This document shows, one piece after another, positions 9,786-45,946 of a DNA stretch of 52,754 nucleotides (position 1 is its first letter; each line of letters starts with the position of its first letter). Source of the stretch: Alphaproteobacteria bacterium. GTDB taxonomy: Bacteria > Pseudomonadota > Alphaproteobacteria > JBFXJJ01. The stretch spans positions 74,513 to 127,266 of the forward strand of contig JBFXJJ010000007.1 in assembly GCA_050175015.1 (NCBI GenBank), in the 5' to 3' direction. The position numbers and the translations under genes are program-made. The notes beneath the pieces were generated by a model that saw nothing but the letters and a program-made list of their open reading frames with translations, ran no database searches and was not told the DNA's origin.

Positions 9786-10094
9786 ATGATAACAGAAAAA
9801 TTTGAAGCATTTCAAACGAAGGGTGATCTTAAGGCTTTTTTATGTGGAATTGATAGCGCCGCTAAAGGTTATGATCGAGATGCCGTATTGGCAGAAGTCG
9901 CCGCTTCTAAAATAGCTGAAGCCGCAGGTGTTGTTCTGGCAGCAAAAGGCGGAGTTAAGGCTGTATTAGCGGAGACATTAACTTTAGGTGCAAATACCGT
10001 TATAAATATTGACAACAGCAACAAGCAACCAGACAAGAAAGCTGCTGGCAATATTATGGATATAATAAAAAAAACAAGAGCTCCCTCACGCTAA
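9786..10094 (+). CDS. Small Ala-rich hypothetical protein with basic C-terminal tail
   Basis: AGGAG RBS, own promoter and terminator; ends NIMDIIKKTRAPSR. Confidence 0.75.
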   Translation: MITEKFEAFQTKGDLKAFLCGIDSAAKGYDRDAVLAEVAASKIAEAAGVVLAAKGGVKAVLAETLTLGANTVINIDNSNKQPDKKAAGNIMDIIKKTRAPSR

Positions 10095-18280: not shown

Positions 18281-18487
18281 ATGCAAATGAACCGCTATAT
18301 ATCGATAAATTTTGAAGAACCTCTAGTTAGACGTCTTGAAAATATTGCGACTAAAACAGGAATGAGCTTAGATGTTTGTGCTTTACAGGCAATATATGAA
18401 TATATTGAAAACTGGGAAGATTTTTATAATTCTGAAATGCTTAATCCTGAAGAAGATGAAGAACGCTTCTTTTTAACGGCCATTTGA
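18281..18487 (+). CDS. Small ribbon-helix-helix (CopG-like) DNA-binding protein
   Basis: ISINF...L..RLE.IA..TG.S......AI.EYIE pattern; TTGACG-N16-TAATTT at 18229-18256. Confidence 0.65.
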   Translation: MQMNRYISINFEEPLVRRLENIATKTGMSLDVCALQAIYEYIENWEDFYNSEMLNPEEDEERFFLTAI

Positions 18488-18898
18488 TTTTTGCAAAATT
18501 TTTGCAGTATCTATGCTTTTAATGTTGTTATTACTGCTAACTCTCCTAATAATTTCACGAGCTCTTTTTGATGGTAGTTTGGTCAGAAAACCTCCGCCTT
18601 TGCCGTTTTTATATGGAGGGGTGCGTCCAACAGAAAGATATTGCTCTGCTGTAGGATCTAATATTTCGCCCCCTTTATTTTGAAGCCACCAGTGTGTAAC
18701 GCCTAAATCATCTTTGCCTCGGCAAGGCGTATAGCCAGAGTTTGATCCACCTAAAAGGTGATACAAAGCTTCTGATGCGGCATAACAATGACCCGCCATT
18801 GGATTGGTTTCAATATAAGATGCTCTAAATTCTGGCTTTAACAAATCAGGGGTTAAAACCTTTTTGATTTGAGATATTAGTAAAGCTTCTCTTTTCAT
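18473..18898 (-). CDS. Hypothetical protein with a putative Cys-His-Asp (papain/transglutaminase-like, YunG-like) triad
   Basis: NPMAGHCYAASEAL, THWW, ILDPTAEQY; ends ILQKSNGR. Confidence 0.65.
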   Translation of the reverse strand: MKREALLISQIKKVLTPDLLKPEFRASYIETNPMAGHCYAASEALYHLLGGSNSGYTPCRGKDDLGVTHWWLQNKGGEILDPTAEQYLSVGRTPPYKNGKGGGFLTKLPSKRAREIIRRVSSNNNIKSIDTAKILQKSNGR

Positions 18899-21389: not shown

Positions 21390-22667
21390 TTATTTTTGAA
21401 CAGAGTTTAGCATTTTGGCAAAGTTTACAAGATCTATTTTAGATGTTTGACTTGCTTTTGATGTAAAACCTTGGTTTCCATTTGTTTCAGAAATTTCTCC
21501 AAAAGCAGAACTTCTCGAATGACCTTCTTTGTATGCGCTATTCGTATCATAATCAGATCTTGTATCTAAATTTTGATAACTCGTATCGCCCTTATTGTCA
21601 GTTCTTTTTTCAAAGTCGTTGAAGTACTCATGCAAGAAGCTTTTAGTGGAAGTAGAAAGATCGACAAAGTGGCTGCTCGCAATAATTTCAGGATCTTTGG
21701 TGAAATAACTTTTGCCATTTTCATTGAGGCAGGTTTGTCTAACAACCTCAGATGCTGTTATTTCGTCTCGATGAGCTTCATCTATGCCTATTGTCATCTC
21801 TTTATTTTTGTTTGCAACGCTGATGCTTTGTTTTTGCTTCCCATGCTGGTTTTTCAAAAGAGTTTGTAGCTCTTCTGCTGTTTCAGGAGCTAAGGCTTCT
21901 TCTCTGCGGCATATTTGATTAATAATTTCTTGGGCAGTTATTTCATCACTGTAAGTATCTTTTGATTCTATCCCGCTTTCTTGGTGTTCTTTCATTACGT
22001 TAACTGTATAACCTTGTTCATATAAGGTCTTAATTTTATTGTTATCATACCAGCCTAAAAAAGCTTGAGTTCTTGCTTCGCCGTTTGTTAATGCTTTTTC
22101 ATCATTAGAAACAGCATCTGCAAATCTATTGGCAATTTCTGGAGACACACTGGCAAAAGCTCTAAACGGCGCCATATCACCATTGTCCCAAATTTCCCAT
22201 AAAGCTTGAGCTGCAGTAGCTTGAGCATCAGCTTCGGTTGCACGATATTTCATAAGCTCAGACTTGATACTATAATTACGTGGTCTCGTTGTATCTTCAG
22301 AATCTAATTCTCCACGCTCAAATTGACCAGCGTGGCGAGCCTCGTGGATTAATACTCCTGCCAATTTATCGTTGGAAGTAAAAGGGTCTAACACAATTAA
22401 TTTTTTGCTTTTTGAGGTTCCGCCATTGGAGCCAAAGGCAAATTCCATATTTAATCTGTAGCCAGCTTTAGATGCAATCTCTAAAGTTTCCTTGCCAGTT
22501 TTGCTGGTGGCAATGATATTGATTATATCACAAAGTTTAGCAATTTCCTTAGGATTATCGGTAAGAAATTCAAAAGCTGGTGTAATATTCTGCTTAAAAG
22601 AACTTTCATTAGAACCAGATTCTTGGCTTAAGGCTTTTTTCAAACTTGGACTATTTTTATTGGTCAT
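21390..22667 (-). CDS. Putative zinc metallopeptidase (DUF6782-like)
   Basis: SKTGKETL, LIHEARHAGQ (22332-22346) and downstream RATEADAQA; low-complexity C-terminus; no signal peptide. Confidence 0.7.
   Translation of the reverse strand: MTNKNSPSLKKALSQESGSNESSFKQNITPAFEFLTDNPKEIAKLCDIINIIATSKTGKETLEIASKAGYRLNMEFAFGSNGGTSKSKKLIVLDPFTSNDKLAGVLIHEARHAGQFERGELDSEDTTRPRNYSIKSELMKYRATEADAQATAAQALWEIWDNGDMAPFRAFASVSPEIANRFADAVSNDEKALTNGEARTQAFLGWYDNNKIKTLYEQGYTVNVMKEHQESGIESKDTYSDEITAQEIINQICRREEALAPETAEELQTLLKNQHGKQKQSISVANKNKEMTIGIDEAHRDEITASEVVRQTCLNENGKSYFTKDPEIIASSHFVDLSTSTKSFLHEYFNDFEKRTDNKGDTSYQNLDTRSDYDTNSAYKEGHSRSSAFGEISETNGNQGFTSKASQTSKIDLVNFAKMLNSVQK
21729..21947 (-). repeat. Diverged intragenic duplication with a 180-nt period
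   Basis: DEITAQEIINQIC (21909-21947) and DEITASEVVRQTC (21729-21767). Confidence 0.6.
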
Positions 22668-30392: not shown

Positions 30393-32618
30393 ATGGCCGA
30401 AGAAAAATTAGATAATGAAATAAAACAGGCTTTAGAGGCTTTTTTTGATAGTCAGGTTAGCATTTATGAAGCGGGGGAAGGCTCTGATAGACCTAAAGAA
30501 TTTTTAGACAGACCTTTTGTTGATCTTCTTCCTGCCAGCAAAACCTATTTTGTTGAATCCTTAAAGCAAGATCTTAAAGGCGATGGTTCTTATGCTTTAA
30601 CGGTGAACGAACCATTCAAAAATGGTTCTTTAGATACTAAAGCAAGTAAGACTTTTCAAGCGATTGAAGAGCGTTTTAATAAGGTTAAGCCTGATCAAAA
30701 ATTGTTTGTAATTGATGCCGATAGTATTCGTTCCCGCTATGCTATGGACGAATCTTTTGACCGTAGTCTAGGTAAGAGCATTATCGAATATGTTAAAGAG
30801 AAAAAACTAAAATATGGCGTAGAAAACAATTTCCCTGCTGCTAAAGAAAATGTAGAACATTTAATTGATTCAGCGTTTAAAGCAACAAGCGCATTTTCAA
30901 GAACACAGCCAGCTAATGTTACAGAAGAAAATCTAAAAGGTGATTTTTGTGTAAGTTTAGTTGTGGTTCAGAATCCTGATGATTTGCAGAAAAAATGGAT
31001 GGTTCAGGTGCCAGGTGTTCCTGAAAGAATGGAGAGAGATGGTTTAACACACGATAATCTCTGCCGTTTTACAATTTATCATGAATTTGGGCATGCTCTT
31101 GATGATTTAAGCAATAGAGGTAAGGTTCCTTATTTAATAGAAGCCAATCCAGAAAAAATTATGACTCGTTACCGCAAAGAATGTTTTGCTGATGCTCACG
31201 CTGTGTTGCAGATGGCAAGAGATGATAAGCATACTAGATCTGGGGAGCTTTTAGCTGATATTAGAATTTCTAATGTCTCTCGCAGGGTTCTGGACCTGCA
31301 AGGCAAAAAAGGCAAAGATGCTGTTAAGCCTGACATTGAAAAAAAATTAGAAAAAATGCAAAAAGCCCAAGTTATAGATGAAAACGAAAGCAAATCATCT
31401 AAAGCCATTAGGAAGCTTGAAGAATATGACGAAAAGTACAGCGACATCTCAAAAATAGGCGACCATATGGCATATTACACAACTCCAGTTGTTGATGCTG
31501 CGGTTGAATTTGCCAAAAAAGGACTTGCAGATGGCTCGCTTTTGAAGATGAGCGATGAGGAAGTTTTAAAAGCCTGCCGCCAGCTTGTTAATGATAATAC
31601 ACTTTCAAATGATCGTATGAGTGAACTTAGATTAGATATTTTTAAAGGAAATTTTGAAAATCCAGATATTAAGACTATTCAGGCTCGTTCACTTATTGCT
31701 GATAATAATATGCCAATTCCTCGTGAAAATATTTTGAGTGAAGCTGAGCAAACTAAAGAAAAAATGAAAGCATCAAACGATAGAAAACTTAAAGCAATGC
31801 TTGGAATTCCTGTCGAAAAACCAGCTTCGGCGCCGGTTAATCCAACAGATCTTCTGAAAAAGATATCTGATGAACAGAGTTTAAAGAATTGGAGTGCTGG
31901 CATTATTGATCGTATTGAAGAAAGCGGTTATACCAAAGAAGGCATTATTAAAATTACTAAAGAAGAGAAAGATGAAATTAGACAATATCATGGTAGAACA
32001 CCAGATACATTAAGAGAAGCTAAGCTTAAGTTTCTTAATGATGCCCTGCTTGCTCACCCAGATGTTTATATTGCAAAATCAAAAACAAGAGTAACTGTAA
32101 GAAACAGTATAGAATCTGTCAAAACAGTTGGTTCTTCAGAAAACAGAGAAAACACCGTTTCTGAATTCTTAAAATTGAAAGTAGCCGCAGCTAATTACGC
32201 ATCAGATTCAGTTGAAAACGCTATGAAAACAGATTTGTCAAGCTTAAGCCCGGAAGAGTTTTTAAAAGCAAAGAATAGAGAAGTTGTTAACTATAATAAA
32301 ACGTTGATAGCCGAAAAAACCTCGCAGGAAGTAGCATTTGCTATTTGCCGTAATAAAGAGGAATTTGATTTTCTAAGAAAAACAAGTCCTAGCACAGCAG
32401 AGTTGGTGCAGAACGCAGCTAAAAAAAGACACCCAAGCTGGATGGAAGATTATCATATGGCTTTTGCATCAAATGATAAGTCTCAGTTATCAACAACGTT
32501 GAAAAAAATAGCCGCGTATGGTCAAGGGGTTGTTGATATCAATAAAAAGCTTGAGCTCAAAGAGCAGAATCATGCGATGGCTATTGCTTTAAGAAGATTA
32601 AACGATGGTCGTTCTTAA
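30393..32618 (+). CDS. Uncharacterised HExxH zinc-metalloprotease-like protein, paralog 1 (741 aa)
   Basis: HEFGH at 31080-31094, then RKECFAD; shares collinear blocks with 36158 and 38909. Confidence 0.8.
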   Translation: MAEEKLDNEIKQALEAFFDSQVSIYEAGEGSDRPKEFLDRPFVDLLPASKTYFVESLKQDLKGDGSYALTVNEPFKNGSLDTKASKTFQAIEERFNKVKPDQKLFVIDADSIRSRYAMDESFDRSLGKSIIEYVKEKKLKYGVENNFPAAKENVEHLIDSAFKATSAFSRTQPANVTEENLKGDFCVSLVVVQNPDDLQKKWMVQVPGVPERMERDGLTHDNLCRFTIYHEFGHALDDLSNRGKVPYLIEANPEKIMTRYRKECFADAHAVLQMARDDKHTRSGELLADIRISNVSRRVLDLQGKKGKDAVKPDIEKKLEKMQKAQVIDENESKSSKAIRKLEEYDEKYSDISKIGDHMAYYTTPVVDAAVEFAKKGLADGSLLKMSDEEVLKACRQLVNDNTLSNDRMSELRLDIFKGNFENPDIKTIQARSLIADNNMPIPRENILSEAEQTKEKMKASNDRKLKAMLGIPVEKPASAPVNPTDLLKKISDEQSLKNWSAGIIDRIEESGYTKEGIIKITKEEKDEIRQYHGRTPDTLREAKLKFLNDALLAHPDVYIAKSKTRVTVRNSIESVKTVGSSENRENTVSEFLKLKVAAANYASDSVENAMKTDLSSLSPEEFLKAKNREVVNYNKTLIAEKTSQEVAFAICRNKEEFDFLRKTSPSTAELVQNAAKKRHPSWMEDYHMAFASNDKSQLSTTLKKIAAYGQGVVDINKKLELKEQNHAMAIALRRLNDGRS

Positions 32619-32648
32619 AAATAATTAGTTAGACATATTTTTGATAAT

Positions 32649-32683
32649 AAAAAACGCTCAGCCAAAAAACTGAGCGTTTTTTT
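32649..32683. terminator. Intrinsic terminator (bidirectional)
   Basis: AAAAAACGCTCAG-CCAAAAAA-CTGAGCGTTTTTTT. Confidence 0.8.
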
Positions 32684-32844
32684 GTTCAGAATCTATGATT
32701 TATGCATCATTTTAAAAAAATCCTTAACAATCCTAAAACTTTATTTAGATAAAAATTTTACTTTTGCTTTTACTAAAAGACAAGTTGAAGGTAGACGCTT
32801 GCCGCAAGACAAAATAAAAGCGTATAATTGAGTTAACATTGCTC

Positions 32845-35655
32845 TTAGTGAGCTTCTTCCCAGTTATTTGCAATTCCAGCATCAACAATTAACGGCACGG
32901 ATAGATTCACAATATCAGCCATAATGCCCTTGATTTTTTGAGCAAGATTGTCGGCATTTTCTTTCGGAGTTTCAAAAATTAATTCATCGTGTACCTGAAG
33001 CAGCATTTTGGCATTCATTGCTTCCTTCGTTATTTCTTTCTCAATTTTTATCATTGCCATTTTGATGATATCTGCTGCGCCGCCTTGGATTGGAGCGTTG
33101 ATAGCAGCTCTTTCTGCGAAACCTCTGATATTGCCATTTTTGTGATTTATACCGTCGATATAACATTTTCGCCCGAAAGGAGTTAAAACGAAGCCATTTT
33201 TACGGGCAAAAATTTTAGTTTCTTCCATATATTGATTAATTTCAGGAAACTTAGCAAAGTATGAATCGATGTATTCTTTTGCTTCGCCTCTTGAAATACC
33301 AAGTTGAGCGGCTAAACCAAAAGGTGATATGCCGTAAATTATACCAAAGTTAATGGCTTTAGCCTTGCGCCGTATAAGACTGTCCATACCTTCAATAGGG
33401 ATCCCAAAAACTTCAGAAGCAGTGGCAGCGTGAATGTCAACACCATTTTCAAAGGCTCGTTTCATCGCTGGAATATTAGCAACGTGAGCCACAAGGCGAA
33501 GTTCAACTTGAGAATAGTCGGCTGCAACTAAGCTGTAGTTTGATGGAGCAATAAAGGCTTGACGGATTTTTCTTCCTTCTTCATTACGAGCGGGTATGTT
33601 TTGCAGATTAGGATTACTTGATGAGAGACGTCCTGTTGAGGTTATCGTTTGAGCAAAGCTTGTGTGAACTCTTTTGGTTTGAGGGTTTATTTGGTTAACT
33701 AGAGCGTCGGTATAGGTGTTTTTTAACTTAGAAAATTGACGCCATTTCAGGATATACTCTGCTATTTTATGCCCTTCATCTCTTAGATTTTCAAGTGTTT
33801 CAGCGTCAGTTGACCATGAACCTGTTGCCGTCTTTTTGCCCGTATTAATTCCCATTTTTTCAAATAGAATTTCGCCAAGCTGTTTTGGCGACCCTATGTT
33901 AAATTCGGTTTCAGAAAGATTAAAAATCTCGGCTTCAAAATCTTTGATATATTTTTCAAATTCAAATTTAGCTTCATTTAGTTTAGTTGAGTCAACTAAT
34001 ATCCCCCGCTGTTCCATAGCACATAAAACATTAATTAGAGGACGCTCTATTGTTTCATAAAGAGTTACCATTTTTTCTTCAAGCAGGCGTTTTTTAAAAA
34101 AGTGCCAGAGTTTTAATGTTACATCAGCATCTTCTGCGGCATATTGAGCGGCTTCATTTAATTCAACTTCAGCAAAGTTTTTTATTCCCTTTTTCTTATC
34201 GCAGACATCTTTGAATAGAATCGTTTGATGGTTAAGGTGAATTTTTGCCAATTCGTCCATACCGTGACCATTTTTGCTGCCGTCAAGGACATAAGACATA
34301 ACCATTGTGTCATCAATCGGCGATAAAGCTAAGTTTCCTTGATAGGCTTTAACAAAAACGTGGTAGTCAAATTTAATGTTGTGCCCAATTTTTAAAAGAC
34401 CTTTATCTTCTAACAAAGGCTTAAGTTCGCTCAAGACATCTTTAAGAGGTATTTGCGGCAGAAGTTCGGTTGGTTCTGCCGTATCAAAAAAATCAAATGA
34501 GCTTTGGGCTTTTTTGGCAATATGACCAACTGGGATATAAAAAGCTTCGTTTTCCTCAAAGGCCAAAGATATTCCAACAAGGTGAGCTGAATGAGGATCA
34601 AGGCTGTCGGTTTCGGTATCAATAGCAAAGTATCCTTTTTTCTCAGCCTCTTTTAAGGTGCTTTTTAAGCTTGGTAAATCTTGTATTAATTTGTAAACAG
34701 GTGGTTTTTTGGAAGTATTATCAACTTTGATGCTGTTGTTTTCGGAATAAAGAAGCGGTTCTGATATTGTTTTGTTTTCTCGGTTGTTATTAAATTTTTT
34801 AAGCCAGCTTTCAGCTTTGGTTTTGAGGCTTCTAAATTCGTGTATTTCAATGAAATTCAAAACATCATCAAGCAAAGGAGCTTTCGTTAGAAAATCATCA
34901 ATTTTGATGTCATCTAAAGGAACATTAGGGCATAAAGTTACAAGCTTTTTAGAGATTAAAGCTAAATCTTTGTGTTCTATTAAAAGCTCTCTTCTTTTGT
35001 TTTGTTTTATTTTAGCCGCATTATCTAAAAGGTTTTCTAAAGTATCATATTCATTAATTAAAAGAGCCGCAGTTTTAACGCCGATGCCAGGAACACCTGG
35101 AATGTTGTCTGATGTATCTCCTGCAAGGGCTTGGACATCAATCACTTTTTCTGGAACAACCCCAAATTTATCGACAACTTCAGGAATATTGATAAATTTA
35201 TTTTTAATCGGGTCATAAAGTTTGATTTGATCGTTAACAAGCTGCATTAAATCCTTATCCGCAGAAATAACCGTAACTTCCATATTTTCTGCGGCGGCTT
35301 TATTTGCCAGCGTTGCAATCAAATCATCGGCTTCAAAGCCCTCTTTCTCAAGCATAGGAAGACCAAAAGCACCCACAGCATCACGAAGCAGAGGAAACTG
35401 AGGAATAAGTTCTTCAGGGGTTTCTTTACGATTGGCTTTGTAGTCAGCATAGATGTCATTTCTAAAATTTTTGCGGGCAGCATCAAAAACTACAACCGCA
35501 TATTCCGCCTGCATTTCAGAGACGAGACGCATCAACATATTGGTGAAGCCGTATACTGCGTTTACAGGTGTTCCATCTGAACGAGTCATTGGAGGAAGGG
35601 CATAAAATGCTCTGAAAATATATCCAGAACCATCAATTAAAAAAAGCCGTTTCAT
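32845..35655 (-). CDS. polA: DNA polymerase I
   Basis: LIDGSGYIFRAF (5'-3' exo), IDTET (3'-5' exo), TGRLSSSNPNLQNIP, DYSQVELR, RRKAKAINFGIIYG, LQVHDEL. Confidence 0.99.
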   Translation of the reverse strand: MKRLFLIDGSGYIFRAFYALPPMTRSDGTPVNAVYGFTNMLMRLVSEMQAEYAVVVFDAARKNFRNDIYADYKANRKETPEELIPQFPLLRDAVGAFGLPMLEKEGFEADDLIATLANKAAAENMEVTVISADKDLMQLVNDQIKLYDPIKNKFINIPEVVDKFGVVPEKVIDVQALAGDTSDNIPGVPGIGVKTAALLINEYDTLENLLDNAAKIKQNKRRELLIEHKDLALISKKLVTLCPNVPLDDIKIDDFLTKAPLLDDVLNFIEIHEFRSLKTKAESWLKKFNNNRENKTISEPLLYSENNSIKVDNTSKKPPVYKLIQDLPSLKSTLKEAEKKGYFAIDTETDSLDPHSAHLVGISLAFEENEAFYIPVGHIAKKAQSSFDFFDTAEPTELLPQIPLKDVLSELKPLLEDKGLLKIGHNIKFDYHVFVKAYQGNLALSPIDDTMVMSYVLDGSKNGHGMDELAKIHLNHQTILFKDVCDKKKGIKNFAEVELNEAAQYAAEDADVTLKLWHFFKKRLLEEKMVTLYETIERPLINVLCAMEQRGILVDSTKLNEAKFEFEKYIKDFEAEIFNLSETEFNIGSPKQLGEILFEKMGINTGKKTATGSWSTDAETLENLRDEGHKIAEYILKWRQFSKLKNTYTDALVNQINPQTKRVHTSFAQTITSTGRLSSSNPNLQNIPARNEEGRKIRQAFIAPSNYSLVAADYSQVELRLVAHVANIPAMKRAFENGVDIHAATASEVFGIPIEGMDSLIRRKAKAINFGIIYGISPFGLAAQLGISRGEAKEYIDSYFAKFPEINQYMEETKIFARKNGFVLTPFGRKCYIDGINHKNGNIRGFAERAAINAPIQGGAADIIKMAMIKIEKEITKEAMNAKMLLQVHDELIFETPKENADNLAQKIKGIMADIVNLSVPLIVDAGIANNWEEAH

Positions 35656-35836
35656 AAAATAATCCTAAAAACAGTTGTAATTTCAAAAAAACATAGTAAT
35701 TAAATAACATGATTTTATCTATTTTTATTTTATTGTATTTTTTTTGTTGAAAAAATAGACTAAAAAATGTATTTAATAAAAATGAGACAAATTTTTTTAT
35801 CTCTCTCTATGACTTTTTATGAAGGAGGCTATCAAA

Positions 35837-36112
35837 ATGGCATTAAAAGTTACAGCAGATTTTATGGAAAATGAAAAAGGCGAGATCTTGCTCGCAATTC
35901 CTGCTAGTGAAGGTGAACCTCTCGAGCCGACTCTTTCATTCAATGAAGATGCTTCCGTTGCCGAATTAAAACGCAGTAAAGGGCAAATGATTGAAATTCC
36001 TAACATTCACCCAGATATTAGAAGCAAACTTCTAAAAACAACAAAAATTCTAGTTACTGAAGTCGGTAACAATAAAATTAATAACGGATATTATGTTACG
36101 GTTACGAAATAA
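35837..36112 (+). CDS. Small partner protein A (91 aa), paralog of 38599..38889
   Basis: AAGGAGG RBS at 35822-35828 before ATG 35837; shared VTAD..EN..G..LLA, NIHPD.R.KL, KILVTEVG, NGY. Confidence 0.85.
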   Translation: MALKVTADFMENEKGEILLAIPASEGEPLEPTLSFNEDASVAELKRSKGQMIEIPNIHPDIRSKLLKTTKILVTEVGNNKINNGYYVTVTK

Positions 36113-36157
36113 ACTTTTTTGAGATGTAGTAAAAAAAATATAAGGTGAAAAATAAAA

Positions 36158-38443
36158 ATGGCTGAAATACAATTACCAAATGAAATAACAAAAGCATTAC
36201 AGGATTTTTTTCAGAATAAGGACATAACAGTTTATGAAGCAGGTTTAGAAGAAGATCGTCCTTCTAGAATTCAAGACCGTCCTTTCTTCGACGTCGTTCC
36301 TGAATCTGAGACAACATGGTTGGCAAATAAAGAAGGTGCTAAAACAGCTGGAAGTTATAAGTTAGCTTTAGGAGCTGAACAGGAACCAAATACCAATACT
36401 CTTGATACCGAAAGCCATAAATTCATTCAAGATGTAGAAAAACGTTTTCGTGATCTGCAGCCAAATGCAAAACTTTTCATTATCGATCCCGATGTTGTTA
36501 TGGGACGCTATGCTATGGATACCTCAAGAGATCGTAGCATTGGTAAATCAATGGTTGAATTTCTGCATGATAAATTAACAGAGAATAATATTACGGAACA
36601 TAAGGCAGAGCCTGGTGATGAAAGTGTTTTTGTTCCCGCATCTATTACAGGAAATTCACCATTTAGTATGCCTCTTCCAACAGGAGTTACAGAGGAAAAC
36701 CTTGCTGGTACTGGAAAAATATGTGTTGTTGTTGCTTCTAATCCAGACAAGATTATGCACGATTTATGGACTAGAGTTCCTGGCTCAGAGGAACGTATGG
36801 CTGAATTAGGAATAGATTTTGATTCAACAAGACGTATGGTTCTTTACCATGAGTTGGGTCACTCTATGGATATTTGGTCAGATAAAGGTGTTGGTAATCC
36901 TATTACAAATAATAATATTGTAGACCAGACGTTAAGACGTCATAGAACAGAATGCTTAGCCGATACGTTTGCAACCCTTCAGGTTGCTAGAGATTTTAAA
37001 TCTACAGCAACTCCAGAATTGATGGCAGACTTAAGAGCTTGCTTTGCTTATGAAGGTTTTAAAGAGGATTCTCCAGAACACCGCGCTAAAATGAAAATGT
37101 TTAGTATTCTGGGTGACGAACGGAAAAAACATGAAAAAACCAAAAAACTAGAAAAGAAAATGGGAATAGCTGAAGTTCCAACAAAAGCAACTAAAGATGT
37201 TTTGAAACTTGAAGAAACAGCTAAAGATTTTGAAGTATTAAAATCTATTGGAATGACGTTGGCTTATAATGTAACTCCAATTACTGATGTTGCGATTAAA
37301 GTTGCAAAAGAAGGTTTAAAAGACGGTTCTTTATTGAAAATGACAGATAAAGAAGTTCTTGAACTTGCGGAAAAGATTGTTGAAGAAAATGCTTTTGATA
37401 AAAACCGTTTGAATCAAGCTGCCATGGATATCTTAACAGGAAATAAAGAAAATCCAGATCTTAAAGCTATTGAAAATCGTTATCAGCAAGCTTTGTCAAA
37501 TATGCCTCTTCCTGCTAGTGAAATGGCGAAACGTTTAGAAGAAAAACAGAAAAAACAAGAAGAAGCTATTACCAAACAACTTAGAAAACAACTTCACTTA
37601 AAGGTTGAAGATGAGATAAAACCAAAGGGTAATCCGGAAGAAGTCGCATCTCTACTAAGATGGGTTGACAATGTTTACGATAATATCGAGAGAAAAGGCG
37701 GCAATCTTTCGGCTATTGTTTCTTCTGTTTCTGAAGAAAAAGATAAACTCAGAGTTGGAAAAAGTGCCGATAAGCTATATGATAAAAAACTTGCGATTTT
37801 AGATGTTATGTTTATTAATCAAGCTCCAGAAGTCGAACTTGGAATCAAGGCAAGTGCGGCTGTTGCAAAATCTATTGAAGCTTTAGATGTTAAAATTGAT
37901 GGCTTGGATGGTGTATCTGGGGTAAGTTTGATTAATGCTTTTATCCAATATGAAATGGGCAATGCTAAAAAATGTGTTGAAAACATTGCCGCTAAACAAG
38001 AAGTTGATTATGCATCAATGGATATTGTTGAACTGAATAAGGTTCAAGCCAAAGAAAATCAAGAGTATGTAGGACTTCTTTCTGGTGAGAAAATTTCTCA
38101 GGCTTTAGCTGTTAAAATTCGTACAGACAAGGAAGCTTGGAAAGTTGTGAGTGGTTCTGAGAAAATGAGAGATTTGGTTACCAAAAAAGCATTGGGACGT
38201 CCTAGTGATTGGCTTGCAAGTTACCACATTTCTTTAATCGAGAGAAGCCGGGATCGTCAAGAAGATGTACTGTCAAACATAGGGGTAAGCAATATGAACT
38301 ATGCTAGTGCTGTTAAAGAAATTAATAAGAAAGCCTCACAAATGAATGGTGTGGATAAAACTGAAATTGTTTCAGTCAAGCCTCAGAAAACGGCACCATC
38401 AATGCCAAACGTTTTAATGGCATCTAAGTTAAGTCAAAGATAA
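36158..38443 (+). CDS. Uncharacterised HExxH zinc-metalloprotease-like protein, paralog 2 (761 aa)
   Basis: HELGH at 36848-36862, then RTECLAD. Confidence 0.8.
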   Translation: MAEIQLPNEITKALQDFFQNKDITVYEAGLEEDRPSRIQDRPFFDVVPESETTWLANKEGAKTAGSYKLALGAEQEPNTNTLDTESHKFIQDVEKRFRDLQPNAKLFIIDPDVVMGRYAMDTSRDRSIGKSMVEFLHDKLTENNITEHKAEPGDESVFVPASITGNSPFSMPLPTGVTEENLAGTGKICVVVASNPDKIMHDLWTRVPGSEERMAELGIDFDSTRRMVLYHELGHSMDIWSDKGVGNPITNNNIVDQTLRRHRTECLADTFATLQVARDFKSTATPELMADLRACFAYEGFKEDSPEHRAKMKMFSILGDERKKHEKTKKLEKKMGIAEVPTKATKDVLKLEETAKDFEVLKSIGMTLAYNVTPITDVAIKVAKEGLKDGSLLKMTDKEVLELAEKIVEENAFDKNRLNQAAMDILTGNKENPDLKAIENRYQQALSNMPLPASEMAKRLEEKQKKQEEAITKQLRKQLHLKVEDEIKPKGNPEEVASLLRWVDNVYDNIERKGGNLSAIVSSVSEEKDKLRVGKSADKLYDKKLAILDVMFINQAPEVELGIKASAAVAKSIEALDVKIDGLDGVSGVSLINAFIQYEMGNAKKCVENIAAKQEVDYASMDIVELNKVQAKENQEYVGLLSGEKISQALAVKIRTDKEAWKVVSGSEKMRDLVTKKALGRPSDWLASYHISLIERSRDRQEDVLSNIGVSNMNYASAVKEINKKASQMNGVDKTEIVSVKPQKTAPSMPNVLMASKLSQR

Positions 38444-38471
38444 CACAATTTGTTTATAATTTGATTTTTTT

Positions 38472-38502
38472 AAGGAGTGCTTAGTAATAGGCACTCCTTT
38501 TT
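38472..38502 (+). terminator. Intrinsic terminator
   Basis: AAGGAGTGCTTA-GTAA-TAGGCACTCCTTTTT. Confidence 0.85.
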
Positions 38503-38543
38503 ATAATTTTTTTGACAATTATTTTATTTTTGTCCGAAAATTA

Positions 38544-38571
38544 TTGACTTGATTTTTTTTTGAAGTAAACT
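38544..38571 (+). promoter_or_regulatory. sigma70-type promoter of the partner B / paralog 3 unit
   Basis: TTGACT-N16-TAAACT. Confidence 0.55.
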
Positions 38572-38598
38572 TATTAAATAATATAAGAAAGTTATTTT

Positions 38599-38889
38599 AT
38601 GGATAGTAAAATTTTGGAAATAAGAGTTACCGCAGATATTTTAGAAAATGGCAGAGGTGATTTGCTGCTGGCTTTTCACGCAGTTGAGGGCAAGCCAGAA
38701 GCACCATCTTTTACAATAAACGAAGGAACTGGGGTTTTATCTCGAAATGCTACGCAGAATGTTGTTATTGGTAATATTCACCCCGACGTAAGGCAGAAAT
38801 TATCAAATGCTAACAAAATTTTGGTAACAGAGGTTGGTTCGCAAGGGATTGTTAATGGTTATTTTGCGAATGTAAGGGCAATGAATTAA
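38599..38889 (+). CDS. Small partner protein B (96 aa), paralog of 35837..36112
   Basis: About 42 identities over 91 aa with partner A by manual alignment; ends 19 nt before paralog 3. Confidence 0.85.
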   Translation: MDSKILEIRVTADILENGRGDLLLAFHAVEGKPEAPSFTINEGTGVLSRNATQNVVIGNIHPDVRQKLSNANKILVTEVGSQGIVNGYFANVRAMN

Positions 38890-38908
38890 AAAATAAGGAG
38901 AATTCAAG

Positions 38909-41251
38909 ATGGCGGAAAGTGAAATGAGCAAAGAAGTTATGACTGCTCTAGAAGACTATTTTAACAGCCCTATTCAAGTTTATGAATGTGGTAGCGAGCA
39001 AAATCGCCCTGAGCGAATTCAGGATAGACCATTTCTAAAAACACTACCAGATGGCCATACGGTATATGTCCAAAAAACATCTGCAACCAAATCTGTTGGT
39101 TCTTTTGCGCTTTCTTTAGACAAACCGATTATTGGCGGCTCAATTGCTGCTGAAACCGAAAACAGTAAATTCTTGCAGGAAATGCAGGAGCGTTTTAGAA
39201 ATGCTAAAGAAGATGTTAATTTAATTATTATTGATCCCGATGTTATTCGTGGTCGTTATGCAATGGATGAAAATCCCCGCCGTACATTATTCCAAAGTTT
39301 TTATGAATATTTACATGGGAATATGGAACAGGACGGAGTATCTAAAGCAATGCCTCTTTCTAAAGAAGATTATGGTGTGCTTATGGAATCCGCAATATTG
39401 GGCAACAGTCCGCTATCTCTTGGGGTGCCAATTAAAGGTTTGGGACAATATGCTATTGTTATATCAAGTCAGCCTGATATGCCAATGCATGATATGTTTA
39501 CCTCAATTCCTGGTTCAGAAATTCGTATGGAACATCTTAAAATTGGCAAAGAGCATGTCCGTGATATGATTCTGCTTCATGAGTTAGGTCATGCATTGGA
39601 TACGCTTAATAAGCAAGAAGATGGCGACACTATTGCTGATGATATTTTAAAACGTCATAGAACAGAATGTGTTGCCGACGTTCATGCAACTTTGCAGACA
39701 GCTAAGAAGTATGGCAGTACAGATGTTGGCAAGCTAGTTAGTGATATTCGTATTGATAACACTGTTCAAGGTATTGCCTATATTCAAAGGCAGCTTTCTG
39801 GAGGTATGGGGCTTGAAGGTGATGTCGAAGGTCTTAAAGGAGCTTCAAGACTTACCTTAAAGACAGTTGATAATGTTTTACGTGAAGATTTTGAAAAACA
39901 AAAATACTTTGCTTCTCCTGAACTAAAAGCTTTTGTTGAAGCAAAAGGTGCAGAGAAAAAGAAAGCTAGCGGCAGCAAAAAAGTTAGTGCTCCTAAGCAG
40001 CCTTCTGCTCAAGACGTACTTGAGAATATTGAACAGAGTGCTCAGCTTCTTAACGTTGCAGAGGTTCTTGGTTCAATTTCATCTTATACCACAAGCTTTT
40101 GTGCCGATGCTGCTGTTAAAATTGCTGACAAAAAATTAAAAGACGGCAGTTTAGCAAAAATGACAGATAAGGAAATTCACAAGCTTGCAGAAGAAATTGT
40201 TGCTAAAGAAGCCTTTGACAAAGCTCAAATTACGGGCTTGGTAATGGGTATGATAACAGGGGAAGAAACTCCTGAATTTATTAAAATCGTTGATCGTTAC
40301 CAAGAAGCAACAACTCGTTTTCCTGAGGACAAGAAAAAACAGGCTGAAGCTCAAATGGCAGCTATGGGTTTCCCTGTTCCAAAGCCAAAGCTCACCCCAG
40401 AAGAAACTGTAAGTTTCAAGAATTGGTGGGAACGTGAAATGGCAGAAAAAATTGAAGCCAAGGGTTCAACGAGAGAAGCCTTGCTAGGTGTTGTCGAAGC
40501 TGAAAAAGATGAGGCTCGTAAAGCTGATACTCTTTACAACCAATATAAAATTGCGGTTATGAATCAGTTGTTTATGGAAAACCCTGATAGAATGACAGAT
40601 AAAGCTAAAACTTTCGGAACAGTTAGAGATACTTTGAAAAATATTGAAGCTCCAGTTGTTGAAGAAAAAGGTTTAAAAGCTGTAGCTGCTTTTGTTGAAA
40701 CGGAGATGAAAGCTTTAGATACAGGTTTGAAAGCTGTAGAATTAGCTGAAGGCAGGAATATTGCTTCAATGTCTCCAGAAGTGTTTGCAAAGACTGTTTC
40801 TAAAGAAAGCAGAAATCTTAAGAAGCTTTATGAAGAGCAGAAAAAACTCCAAGCATTGGCTTTTGCTATTCGTAAGGATCCAGAAGCTTGGGAAGCTGTA
40901 AGCAAGACTCCTCTGTTAGCACAGAAAATTGAGGAACAAGCTAAACAAAAGCATCCTGTTTGGGTTGAAGGCGTTCACCTTAATTTAGGACAGAATACTG
41001 CTCAGGATTTAAAAAATTCAAAAGATGGAATAACGCTTGATAAAAAAGTTTTAGCATCATGTGTTTTACAATCTGAGGCGGTTTCAGGCGTGGTTGCGAA
41101 AACAACACTTAAGAAATTAGAAAATGAATTACCTCAACAGCAAGGTTCTTCTTCTGGTCTTAAGAGTGAAAGTAGTCGTAAAAAGCGCGAATATACTGAA
41201 TCAGAAGGAATAAGATGGAATCTTTTGAACAAAACAGGACGTTCTAAATAG
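38909..41251 (+). CDS. Uncharacterised HExxH zinc-metalloprotease-like protein, paralog 3 (780 aa)
   Basis: AAGGAG RBS; HELGH at 39578-39592, then RTECVAD. Confidence 0.8.
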   Translation: MAESEMSKEVMTALEDYFNSPIQVYECGSEQNRPERIQDRPFLKTLPDGHTVYVQKTSATKSVGSFALSLDKPIIGGSIAAETENSKFLQEMQERFRNAKEDVNLIIIDPDVIRGRYAMDENPRRTLFQSFYEYLHGNMEQDGVSKAMPLSKEDYGVLMESAILGNSPLSLGVPIKGLGQYAIVISSQPDMPMHDMFTSIPGSEIRMEHLKIGKEHVRDMILLHELGHALDTLNKQEDGDTIADDILKRHRTECVADVHATLQTAKKYGSTDVGKLVSDIRIDNTVQGIAYIQRQLSGGMGLEGDVEGLKGASRLTLKTVDNVLREDFEKQKYFASPELKAFVEAKGAEKKKASGSKKVSAPKQPSAQDVLENIEQSAQLLNVAEVLGSISSYTTSFCADAAVKIADKKLKDGSLAKMTDKEIHKLAEEIVAKEAFDKAQITGLVMGMITGEETPEFIKIVDRYQEATTRFPEDKKKQAEAQMAAMGFPVPKPKLTPEETVSFKNWWEREMAEKIEAKGSTREALLGVVEAEKDEARKADTLYNQYKIAVMNQLFMENPDRMTDKAKTFGTVRDTLKNIEAPVVEEKGLKAVAAFVETEMKALDTGLKAVELAEGRNIASMSPEVFAKTVSKESRNLKKLYEEQKKLQALAFAIRKDPEAWEAVSKTPLLAQKIEEQAKQKHPVWVEGVHLNLGQNTAQDLKNSKDGITLDKKVLASCVLQSEAVSGVVAKTTLKKLENELPQQQGSSSGLKSESSRKKREYTESEGIRWNLLNKTGRSK

Positions 41252-41270: not shown

Positions 41271-41303
41271 AAAACCGCTGTTTAGCAATAGACAGCGGTT
41301 TTT
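41271..41303 (+). terminator. Intrinsic terminator
   Basis: AAAACCGCTGTTTA-GCAA-TAGACAGCGGTTTTT. Confidence 0.85.
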
Positions 41304-41541: not shown

Positions 41542-42186
41542 ATGGAAGCAAAAGTAGCAATTCAAAACAGCCATAAAACAGCTTATGTTGTCCCTTGTTC
41601 AAACACATTTCGCAATGATGTTTTAGAGCTGGCTAAAAAGAAAAAAGTTAATGCTGGAGATTTAGCTCGTTCTATTTTTCTAATCTTTTCTAAAGAGGAA
41701 ATTGAAGCTTTTCCTGACACCGCAGAGCCTGATATCTACGAGAGAGAAGAAGTTGTCTTAAAAAGCGGTACAGCTAAAGGACAGAGTTTTAAGAGGAAAC
41801 CTCGTTTGCAGGTAAGAATGCCTCAGGGACTTTCAGCATCATTTATAAGAAAATCATTATTAATGGCGCTCGCGCTTGAAAAAAAAGAATTATCGTTAGA
41901 GCTTGACCAAAAGCAGACACCTAAAAAGAATGACTTAAAACAGGAAATAGATCGTTTAAAAACGGTTATTTCTCATCTAGCGTTTGAACCACTTAGAGAT
42001 GGGGTTAGAAGCAAAGATGAAGCTTTATTTGTCTTAGGCTTTCCTCCGCACTCTAATCCAGATTTAACGCTGGCTAAAGTGAAGTTTAGAATCTTGGCAT
42101 CTATTTTTCACCCAGATAGCATTTTTGGAAGCCACGATCGTATGAGTAATATTAATTCAGCTATGGATTTTTTCAGAAATAGATAA
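41542..42186 (+). CDS. Protein with a C-terminal J (DnaJ-like) domain
   Basis: ALFVLGF...KFRILASIFHPD...M..INSA (HPD motif); N-terminal domain unrecognised. Confidence 0.75.
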   Translation: MEAKVAIQNSHKTAYVVPCSNTFRNDVLELAKKKKVNAGDLARSIFLIFSKEEIEAFPDTAEPDIYEREEVVLKSGTAKGQSFKRKPRLQVRMPQGLSASFIRKSLLMALALEKKELSLELDQKQTPKKNDLKQEIDRLKTVISHLAFEPLRDGVRSKDEALFVLGFPPHSNPDLTLAKVKFRILASIFHPDSIFGSHDRMSNINSAMDFFRNR

Positions 42187-45186: not shown

Positions 45187-45813
45187 TTAACGGCTATTGC
45201 CTTTTGCTTTAATTGTTGCGGCATAACGAGCTTGCGCATCAGCTTCTTTTTTGCGTTCAGCTGCAATCTCCTGACGGACTTTAATAGCTGCCTTTTTATA
45301 GGATTCATAGGATTCTTCATAATATTTTTCAGGATCTAAAGGCATACGACCTCTAGATAAATCCTTATCAATTTTTGCTCCAACAAGCTCTAAATCCTGC
45401 AGAGTTGCATTTTGATTAGAATCACAGGTTTTAATATTAGTAAAATCAGCATTTTTTACGTGGCAGAAAAAGAAGTAGCTTGATTCCATTTTGGCGCCGC
45501 AGAACTTAGCTGATTCCAAATCGGTTCCATAGAAAGCCGCATTACGAGTATCAGCATTAGTAAAATTAGCGTTTTTCAGTTTAGCGCCCTGTAATTGTGC
45601 TCCTTGAACATCTGCACCTTCAAAATCAGCGCCATCAAACTTGCCGCCTCTTAATTTAAGACCGCTAAGATCTTGATTTCTTAAATCTGCTCCAGATAAA
45701 TCTTTTCCTTTTTCTACAGCTTCTTGAATCATTTGTCCGAAGTTGCGAGCATATGTTGAGTAAAGGACTACACCTTCTTTGTTTTTGACCTCATAAACGT
45801 CAGGCTTATTCAT
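45187..45813 (-). CDS. Pentapeptide-repeat protein with basic C-terminal tail
   Basis: A(D/N)(L/F)xx repeats (ADLRN, ADFEG, AKLKN, ANFTN); AGGAG RBS before ATG 45813; ends IKAKGNSR. Confidence 0.88.
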   Translation of the reverse strand: MNKPDVYEVKNKEGVVLYSTYARNFGQMIQEAVEKGKDLSGADLRNQDLSGLKLRGGKFDGADFEGADVQGAQLQGAKLKNANFTNADTRNAAFYGTDLESAKFCGAKMESSYFFFCHVKNADFTNIKTCDSNQNATLQDLELVGAKIDKDLSRGRMPLDPEKYYEESYESYKKAAIKVRQEIAAERKKEADAQARYAATIKAKGNSR

Positions 45814-45946
45814 AACCAAAATCTCCTAAAAAAAGATAGAAACAAACTAAAACATAAAAGCTATTATTTTTAATTTTCAATTTACACTTCATTTGATTTA
45901 TTTGCTAGGTTTTTTATAAAAACAAACAATAAAAAATACAAAAAAC

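Follow-up and report, generated by a model that had tools for sequence, protein, structure and literature searches.

A multicopy family of HExxH proteins in uncultured Alphaproteobacteria: candidate type IV-translocated metalloproteases with a predicted docking partner

In gluzincins of the thermolysin and neprilysin type, the HExxH motif is followed by ExxxD on the next helix, the glutamate-helix signature. Members of Peptidase_M91 (NleD-type, PF14891) also carry HExxH and are type III substrates. Type III signals are N-terminal, and type III substrates have N-terminal chaperone-binding regions that are bound via beta-strand addition; type I signals are usually acidic or hydrophobic C-terminal ends. 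The cited excerpts on type IVA secretion describe effector signals that are often positively charged C-termini read by VirD4 (PMC12981334, PMC3297438), C-terminal tails of RalF and RARP-2 that bind RvhD4 (PMC11077975), a Rickettsiales rvh system with scattered and duplicated components (PMC2653234), and the small acidic effector-binding proteins IcmS, IcmW and LvgA of Legionella (PMC12981334). Here, we analysed a stretch of 52,754 nucleotides (the window) from an alphaproteobacterial genome (GCA_050175015.1, contig JBFXJJ010000007.1, positions 74,513 to 127,266; the genome, G000, comprises 2.53 Mb in 49 contigs and is 99.4% complete). The window encodes three paralogous proteins of about 750 residues with the motif HExxH...ExxAD near polA (copies 1-3, Table 1).

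We read these proteins as metalloprotease effectors translocated by a type IV system with a chaperone-like or adaptor partner, and give this reading a probability of about 45%. Because they combine a zinc-protease motif, a docking site for a partner and a basic tail that is widely shared in the genome, they look more like cargo of a secretion machine than housekeeping enzymes. The initial annotation had proposed secreted effectors or toxins with different targets. The secretion part of this idea receives indirect support from the shared tail, the type IV genes and the docking partner, from which we infer secretion, its route and a target cell; that the paralogues have different targets is speculation.

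The three copies are collinear from end to end, as had been claimed, with pairwise identities of 31-34% (34% and 32% for copies 2 and 3 against copy 1). Each scores E = 0 in the window genome against a profile built from the three copies, thus their likeness is far beyond chance. Every conserved block listed in the initial annotation corresponds to invariant columns of the three-copy alignment. These are M1-A2-E3...E9...A13-L14...F18 and Y25-E26-G28...R33-P34...D39-R40-P41-F42 at the N-terminus; I107-D108-D110...R115-Y116-A117-M118-D119...R124 and P207-G208...R212-M213 further on; the metal-site motifs H230-E231-G233-H234, E263-C264-A266-D267-A270 and D289-R291; and L378-D380-G381-S382-L383-K385-M386-D388-E390, E525-K526-D527-R530 and W683 in the C-terminal half. 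The HExxH motif starts at residues 230, 231 and 224 of copies 1-3 (HEFGH, HELGH and HELGH, coordinates confirmed by translation), and 28, 29 and 24 residues separate it from ExxAD. The absence of a signal peptide or transmembrane segment was borne out in all three copies (highest 19-residue Kyte-Doolittle mean 0.74-1.21). Each copy had also been credited with its own terminator; strong hairpins follow copies 2 and 3, and downstream of copy 1 a simple hairpin scan gave none on the + strand. The aligned upstream DNA of the copies contains no shared promoter motif, promoter-like sites are not enriched in the window (39 found versus 36.9 expected), and no tRNA genes lie within it. A profile search of the window genome detected a fourth paralogue of 576 aa (HEAGH...ECVAD, G000:C1:283587-285317, the C1 paralogue).

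The family is unnamed and has so far been found only in a few uncultured Alphaproteobacteria. The three copies have no Pfam match at or above cut-off (only the sub-threshold Peptidase_M91), and NCBIfam, PADLOC and PHROGs gave nothing above cut-off. Sequence profile searches of PDB returned just two entries, neither of them meaningful: 1skn with E 0.039, where a charged region matches, and 3cmn with E 1.3 at the HExxH motif. No named family had been recognised at the outset, and this still stands after these searches. A word-indexed protein search gave 36 relatives, whose sole names are 'hypothetical protein' from metagenome-assembled genomes (MAGs) of Alphaproteobacteria, and 1.84 billion representative proteins, searched exhaustively with a profile, yielded 68 at E <= 0.001 and 17 at E <= 1e-30. 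A Pfam scan of 41 more distant representatives found no family above its cut-off. The three named contigs that bear homologues are human-gut or UBA Alphaproteobacteria MAGs, and tblastn against plasmid and phage collections gave no family match.

Among 61 class-level genomes (one per family, the window genome included), four encode the family, mostly in several copies (G000, G002, G018 and G055). A maximum-likelihood tree built from 33 proteins places copy 3 together with the C1 paralogue and a polA-adjacent copy of G055 (support 99/96), copy 2 with a 70%-identical metagenomic protein (100/100), and copy 1 in a set of 19 that includes G002 sequences (83/97, not starred). Forcing the copies of the window genome into one clade, a group named after inspection of the tree, costs 92.8 log-likelihood units and is rejected by the approximately unbiased (AU) test (p-AU 1.7e-7). 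The copies are therefore not sisters, in line with the old, lineage-restricted expansion that had been suggested. Since the G055 homologue also adjoins polA divergently, the position beside polA is probably ancestral.

Among 24 diverged relatives, E232, H235, E265, A268 and D269 (copy 2 numbering) do not vary, and at least 90% retain H231, consistent with the claim that catalytic residues are kept while the remainder diverges. The spacing from HExxH to ExxAD is 22-35 residues in 23 of the 24. A confident full-length AlphaFold2 model of copy 2, built with a 24-row alignment, reached a predicted local distance difference test score (pLDDT) of 79.3 and a predicted template modelling (TM) score (pTM) of 0.71. 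It shows an alpha/beta module at residues 1-71 (lower confidence), a domain at about 85-303 in which three strands precede helices 221-236 (HELGH) and 254-280 (E265/D269), and an all-helical part at 320-728 followed by the tail at low confidence. The domain folded alone gave pLDDT 76.2 and pTM 0.75. An exhaustive structural aligner matched the full model only to generic helical bundles (a four-helix bundle at residues 584-733, Z up to 9.9), and its best match to the domain had Z 6.8 and a root-mean-square deviation (rmsd) of 6.1 over 165 aligned residues, a Z below 8 being one that may reflect merely a common arrangement. We take this best match to be DPP III, and 14 of the 15 PDB matches that align at least 100 domain residues are presumably zincin or zincin-derived folds. 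By our assignment they include DPP III (6.8 and 5.1), BepA/M48 (5.7), M32 carboxypeptidase (5.2), M1 aminopeptidases (4.9 twice), ArdC (4.9), 3cmn (5.1), DUF885 (5.7 and 5.5), lethal-factor-like proteins (6.0, 5.5 and 5.3) and TAF2 (5.3). In the ESM Atlas, the protein is poorly modelled (pLDDT 0.50) and no structure match reaches a TM score of 0.5.

We read the modelled domain as zincin-like and without a close solved relative. It shares with gluzincins the HExxH helix, the ExxAD motif on the next helix 22-35 residues on, a small beta-sheet before the active-site helix, and weak domain-wide fold matches almost solely to zincins. It differs in having no sequence family match, in the modest structural agreement, in an activity that is putative here, and in being one part of a protein of about 750 aa, beside a docking module, helical parts and a basic tail. 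From the motif we infer zinc binding and proteolysis for the family. The initial annotation had called the proteins gluzincin-like, of the M48/M56/ImmA-IrrE kind. The motif part of this holds, while the proposed kinship found no sequence counterpart: the three copies have no Pfam match to M48, M56 or ImmA-IrrE (M78) at E <= 1, a single distant relative matches M48 at 16.7 bits (cut-off 20.3), and language-model neighbours in these families score 0.82-0.84, a weak lead only. Peptidase_M91 resembles the family in being an injected HExxH protein without signal peptide, as proposed here, and in weak matches centred on HExxH. Membership was rejected, since two copies score 17.3 and 12.8 bits and the third has no match, against a gathering cut-off of 25; 2 of the 24 relatives match at E <= 1, and M91 proteins have only about 230 aa.

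Coding-like conservation in the aligned upstream DNA exposed two small genes absent from the initial annotation, located immediately upstream of copies 2 and 3 (Table 1). Their products are paralogous (48% identical). A homologous small gene precedes two family homologues in G002, so that 2 of the 11 loci searched in other genomes (L005-L015) matched; at these loci the flanks of the G055, G018, HGM, UMGS and UBA homologues gave no small gene, nor is there one adjacent to copy 1 or the C1 paralogue. The small family has 12 relatives among 5.8 billion proteins. A partner that is 76% identical (P0112) and a homologue that is 70% identical (P0002) may lie on one shared contig, because each lists a longest contig of 3310 bp.

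Complex prediction for copy 2 and its upstream protein gave interaction prediction scores from aligned errors (ipSAE) of 0.79, 0.75 and 0.73, versus 0.00 for the best of three controls, with contact agreement of at least 97% and a partner pLDDT of at least 81. The mark used is attained by 58 of 80 complexes with a solved structure, compared with 2 of 110 mismatched pairs; these counts hold only roughly here, as own alignments were used. The model supports partner binding. The predicted interface on copy 2 is confined to residues 4-69, where strand 22-31 pairs with partner strand 10-20, and it coincides with the conserved N-terminal blocks of the initial annotation; the conserved N-terminus is thus best read as a docking module. 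A hidden Markov model (HMM) of this module detected in the window genome the four paralogues and one weak match, an 819-aa protein on contig C12 (E 0.039). Secretion chaperone pairs (type III class I; IcmS/IcmW/LvgA) are similar in that a small acidic cytoplasmic protein is encoded beside its client and, as predicted here, pairs with an N-terminal strand. They differ in that the small family described here has no sequence family match and few relatives, and its chaperone role is a proposal.

Five further copies of the small family are encoded elsewhere in the window genome, three of them adjoining other basic-tail proteins. Members have 92-143 aa and isoelectric points (pI) of 4.4-6.05, mildly to clearly acidic. 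The tail-bearing neighbours (G000:C9:89803-90144 (-), C2:240181-240971 (+) and C12:44037-46496 (-)) are small (108-122 aa) or large (819 aa) proteins with hydrophobic membrane-like segments, and by eye start with a motif like the docking block of the HExxH family (weak HMM match for C12 only).

The C-termini of the family end in R in 15 of the 24 relatives and have R among the last three residues in 23, versus 6.5% of the 2052 proxy genes of the window genome that encode R-ending proteins. The last 15 residues of family copies have a net charge of +2 to +4 (genome mean +0.46). A position-specific scoring matrix (PSSM) trained solely on the tails of foreign relatives and applied to the window genome scored 21 proteins at 7 or more at the C-terminus, versus 1-3 for internal windows, 4 for reversed and a mean of about 6 (maximum 11) for shuffled tails. 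In two-fold cross-validation, held-out scores of at least 8 were obtained by 25 C-termini, 3 internal windows and 3.6 shuffled tails, and scores of at least 10 by 18, 1 and 1.3, respectively. The tail is statistically real. Iterative refinement, which is circular as regards counts, gave a consensus with hydrophobic residues at about -9 and -6/-5, K/N at -4 and -2, G/Q/S at -1 and R at 0, and scores of 11.8 for copy 2 and 16.3 for the C1 paralogue.

Roughly 20-40 other proteins of the window genome share the tail, beyond this family and the DUF6782 proteins described below. In the tail set, a signal-like N-terminus was found in 5 of 56 proteins, versus 522 of 2052 overall. The bearers include normally cytosolic hydrolases with C-terminal extensions, namely HAD hydrolases, PepN (M1), two oligopeptidases F (M3), carboxypeptidase Taq (M32), aminopeptidase P (M24), aldose epimerase, adenosine deaminase, nucleoside hydrolase and isoamylase. 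The only aminopeptidase P match in the window genome carries the tail, and so does its G002 orthologue; among 30 orthologue loci, 23 stop shortly past the conserved end without a tail (one from the unpublished G040) and 5 were not evaluated.

A VirB/VirD4 type IV secretion system is encoded in the window genome, scattered over four contigs (Table 1). Two chromosomal VirD4 genes score above cut-off, and a third lies on a small contig that carries Rep3. The three other genomes with the family all contain VirB4 and orthologues of the VirD4 on contig C3 (64-74% identity). The last 40 residues of VirD4 have a net charge of -19 in G000, -28 in G055 and -22 in G018. The scattered genes, the duplicated VirB8 and the tandem VirB6-like genes recall the Rickettsiales rvh system as described in the cited excerpt (PMC2653234). 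Our literature search on type IV secretion in Alphaproteobacteria (RF32) found nothing on this lineage. The tailed proteins resemble the type IVA effectors (Agrobacterium Vir proteins, Bartonella Beps, Rickettsia RalF and RARP-2) in being soluble and Sec-independent, with a short, basic and unstructured C-terminal tail. They differ in that the tail is sharper (about [KN]-x-[KN]-[GSQ]-R at the end) and shared by about 20-40 proteins including catabolic enzymes, in that translocation is presumed here, and in that we recognised no BID-like second signal, an N-terminal partner-docking module being present instead.

In the mechanism that we propose, the proteins would be soluble and modular. An N-terminal module of about 70 residues would dock the small, mildly acidic partner, encoded immediately upstream for two of the three window copies, and a domain of about 230 residues, with a thermolysin-type HExxH...ExxxD on two consecutive helices behind a small beta-sheet, would presumably act as a zinc endopeptidase. 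After a variable, charged linker, the conserved all-helical middle and C-terminal domains may hold or select the target. The flexible basic tail, typically ending in G/S-R, would serve as translocation signal for a VirD4-type coupling protein with an acidic tail. The small partner could act as chaperone or adaptor, holding the protease in a docked or export-competent state; an immunity function is less likely. The proteins would finally be injected as metalloprotease effectors. If this is true, the family represents structurally distinct new zinc-protease effectors with a cognate docking partner.

Table 1. Features of the window and type IV secretion genes elsewhere in the same genome (G000)
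Feature	Position	Strand	Details
141-aa protein, strong tail example	18473..18898	-	C-terminus ...SIDTAKILQKSNGR; PSSM 16.7; weak YunG match below cut-off
DUF6782 putative metallopeptidase	21390..22667	-	HEARH; one of 14 DUF6782 matches in the genome
Paralogue 1	30393..32618	+	741 aa; HEFGH 31080-31094; ECFAD 31179-31193; C-terminus ...ALRRLNDGRS; without small upstream partner ORF
Small partner ORF 1	35819..36112	+	97 aa, pI 5.8; 45 nt upstream of paralogue 2; no Pfam match
Paralogue 2	36158..38443	+	761 aa; divergent to polA; HELGH 36848-36862; ECLAD 36950-36964
Paralogue 2, N-terminal docking module	36158-36367	+	complex prediction
Paralogue 2, zincin-like domain	36371-37162	+	AlphaFold2 model; followed by all-helical remainder
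Paralogue 2, basic tail	38399-38440	+	SMPNVLMASKLSQR; tail PSSM 11.8, rank 47 of 2052
Terminator-like hairpin 3' of paralogue 2	38472..38499	+	12 pairs, then T run
Small partner ORF 2	38599..38889	+	96 aa, pI 6.05; 19 nt upstream of paralogue 3; no Pfam match
Paralogue 3	38909..41251	+	780 aa; HELGH 39578-39592; ECVAD 39665-39679; C-terminus ...WNLLNKTGRSK
Terminator-like hairpin 3' of paralogue 3	41271..41302	+	14 pairs, then T run
VirB4	contig C9		lone gene; above cut-off
Two VirB8, VirB9, VirB10, VirB11	contig C4		above cut-off
VirB10/TrbI homologue	G000:C4:43417-48699 (L080)	-	1759 aa; about ten beta-flower repeats (PF21785) ahead of TrbI domain; then VirB11-like ATPase
Third VirB8	contig C6		above cut-off
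Three tandem VirB6-like genes	contig C3		weak, all below Pfam cut-off

Several findings weigh against translocated metalloproteases. The relative P0044 has YEPGH in place of HExxH (1 of 24), so that enzyme activity cannot extend to every family member. Neither the full-length nor the domain model gave a Foldseek match at E <= 0.001, all domain fold matches lie below Z 8, and the predicted partner contact is on the N-terminal module, away from the active site, and is uninformative on catalysis. With the refined PSSM, copies 1 and 3 score -0.8 and -3.6, extending one or two residues past G-R. The tandem VirB6-like genes are weak matches, and an orthologue of the C3 VirD4 also occurs in G023, G057 and G038, where the family was not found. 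No RNA sequencing runs carrying window DNA were found; the sole matching run is DNA, labelled as a landfill metagenome, and may be the source of the window.

The tail on ordinary enzymes fits a cytoplasmic role, such as membrane anchoring or turnover, about as well as export, and it is these housekeeping-type bearers that keep the main rival alive. According to this rather unlikely alternative, the proteins stay in the cytoplasm as proteases or regulators, the small upstream protein controls or inhibits them (toxin-antitoxin-like or anti-protease), and the basic, amphipathic tail is a membrane-targeting or turnover signal added in this lineage to many cytosolic enzymes. The lack of signal peptides and transmembrane segments in the three copies agrees with this, as do the location among housekeeping genes with polA adjacency kept in G055, the lack of a plasmid or phage match, and the tail on normally cytosolic enzymes including the only detected aminopeptidase P. 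The tail is also amphipathic-helix-like, with hydrophobic residues at about -9 and -6/-5 followed by K/N/R, and AlphaFold places a helix at 752-760 (low confidence). However, only four genomes show the huge expansion and fast evolution of the family and of DUF6782, a pattern unusual for housekeeping proteases; the partner is predicted to sit on the N-terminal module and not at the catalytic site, and basic C-termini together with an acidic VirD4 tail match the known type IVA logic. If the cytoplasmic alternative is true, the tail remains an unexplained lineage-wide tag on about 2% of proteins.

Injection by a type IV system also competes with export by another route, an improbable one in our view, in which the tail and the partner-binding module would serve a type I ABC exporter, the flagellar export apparatus or vesicles. 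The window genome encodes one FlhA, a flagellar export gate, the predicted strand pairing within residues 4-69 recalls type III chaperone binding, and the link between tail and VirD4 is putative. Yet the basic C-terminal tails do not match the known signals of type I or type III systems, and the single FHIPEP gene found in the genome implies that there is no separate injectisome. As a variant of translocation, which we judge to be less probable still, the pairs could be interbacterial toxins with immunity proteins, the protease being the antibacterial effector and the small upstream protein its immunity protein. The one-to-one pairing with copies 2 and 3 and two G002 homologues fits this, other small-family copies adjoin tail-bearing proteins, some with hydrophobic segments, and there is precedent for bacteria-killing type IV systems with neighbouring immunity genes in the cited excerpts (PMC6536674, PMC8740702). 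On the other side, the predicted interface lies outside the catalytic domain, small genes are lacking beside copy 1 and the C1 paralogue, and few of the searched loci (two) matched. The tail as a loading peptide for encapsulin cargo is very improbable, and we rejected this reading. The window genome does encode a full-length family-1 encapsulin (PF04454, E 4e-75), and several tails show hydrophobic-x-hydrophobic-x-x-hydrophobic-K, like the loading-peptide consensus, but co-occurrence contradicts this explanation: PF04454 was detected in 4 of the 61 genomes (G000, G025, G045 and G058) and was not found in the family-bearing G002, G018 (100% complete) and G055 (95% complete). The shell moreover has its own EncFtn cargo gene, whose product ends in the classical peptide ...SSLGLGKL, unlike the basic tails. 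The locus, G000:C3:115007-116162 (-) (L073), is a classical encapsulin operon with the EncFtn cargo gene followed by the family-1 encapsulin and an OsmC-like gene upstream.

A wider version of the type IV reading is doubtful. The uncultured bacteria of this lineage might run a large, hitherto overlooked type IV secretome of about 20-50 proteins (up to about 2% of the proteome) with a sharp tail signal, approximately hydrophobic-x2-hydrophobic-x-[KN]-x-[KN]-[GSQ]-R at the extreme C-terminus, that would be read by a poly-acidic coupling protein. Export would be assisted by a new family of small chaperones that dock on a short N-terminal motif. The cargo would unite the two expanded HExxH families with ordinary digestive enzymes that gained the tail (isoamylase, adenosine deaminase, nucleoside hydrolase and the M1, M3, M24 and M32 peptidases), possibly as a digestive cocktail injected into neighbouring bacterial or eukaryotic cells that are fed upon. 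Already if the main reading is right, a simple searchable C-terminal address would make all type IV cargo of an uncultured lineage of Alphaproteobacteria readable from sequence, and there would be a hint that catabolic enzymes became secretion cargo by gaining a short tail (about 13 residues or more). As the signals of type IVA systems are notoriously poorly defined, a lineage with a sharp signal and a co-varying acidic tail of the coupling protein would be a useful model.

The four genomes that encode the 750-aa family also contain an expansion of the second HExxH family, DUF6782 (PF20573, 'putative metallopeptidase family'), with 14, 24, 21 and 29 matches, as against at most 4 in five others and none in 52. 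The 750-aa family and the DUF6782 expansion thus co-occur exactly among the 61 genomes. R is the last residue of 7 of 13 DUF6782 proteins in the window genome and of 15 of 18 from G002, G018 and G055. DUF6782 proteins resemble the 750-aa family in having HExxH followed about 25-30 residues on by an E/A/D-rich helix and in the R-ending basic tail, and by language-model features they form its closest named cluster (0.81-0.82, only a lead). They differ in length (about 350 versus 750 aa) and motif (HE.RHA.Q...EADA versus HE.GH...EC.AD). Kinship was rejected: Pfam gave no match between the two, and hhalign probabilities were 0.9% (three-row alignment versus the single window DUF6782 protein), 23% and 17%, the latter two covering only 57-62 columns from HExxH to the following helix. 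We found no mention of DUF6782 in the literature.

Further tail-like C-termini were seen by eye in the window. PepN (M1, 925 aa, 12163-14940 (-)) ends in ...LSQIIKEKTR and a 102-aa open reading frame (9786-10094 (+)) in ...IIKKTRAPSR, neither of them being among the best 90 of the refined PSSM; a pentapeptide-repeat protein (45187-45819 (-)) ends in ...KAKGNSR and scores only 3.6. Downstream of copy 3, a 214-aa open reading frame (41542-42186 (+)) without Pfam match contains ...KVKFRILASIFHPD... in its C-terminal part, which presumably resembles the J-domain HPD motif, and ends in ...FFRNR. On contig C16 (G000:C16:29421-32946 (+), L074), three paralogous HAD hydrolases end in ...KLREGR, ...AMKNNGR and ...LLAKQR, the first two being separated by a 123-aa open reading frame; glycogen phosphorylase and a second VirD4-like protein (1013 aa, acidic C-terminus) are encoded nearby. 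The 5112-bp contig C33 (L082), which carries the Rep3 initiator and the TraG/VirD4-like gene, is probably a plasmid or plasmid fragment. Beside the lone VirB4 on contig C9, we detected a divergently oriented type IVb-pilus-like cluster (G000:C9:22606-30651 (+), L072) that encodes TcpQ, a secretin, a PilO accessory protein, a T2SSE ATPase and T2SSF.

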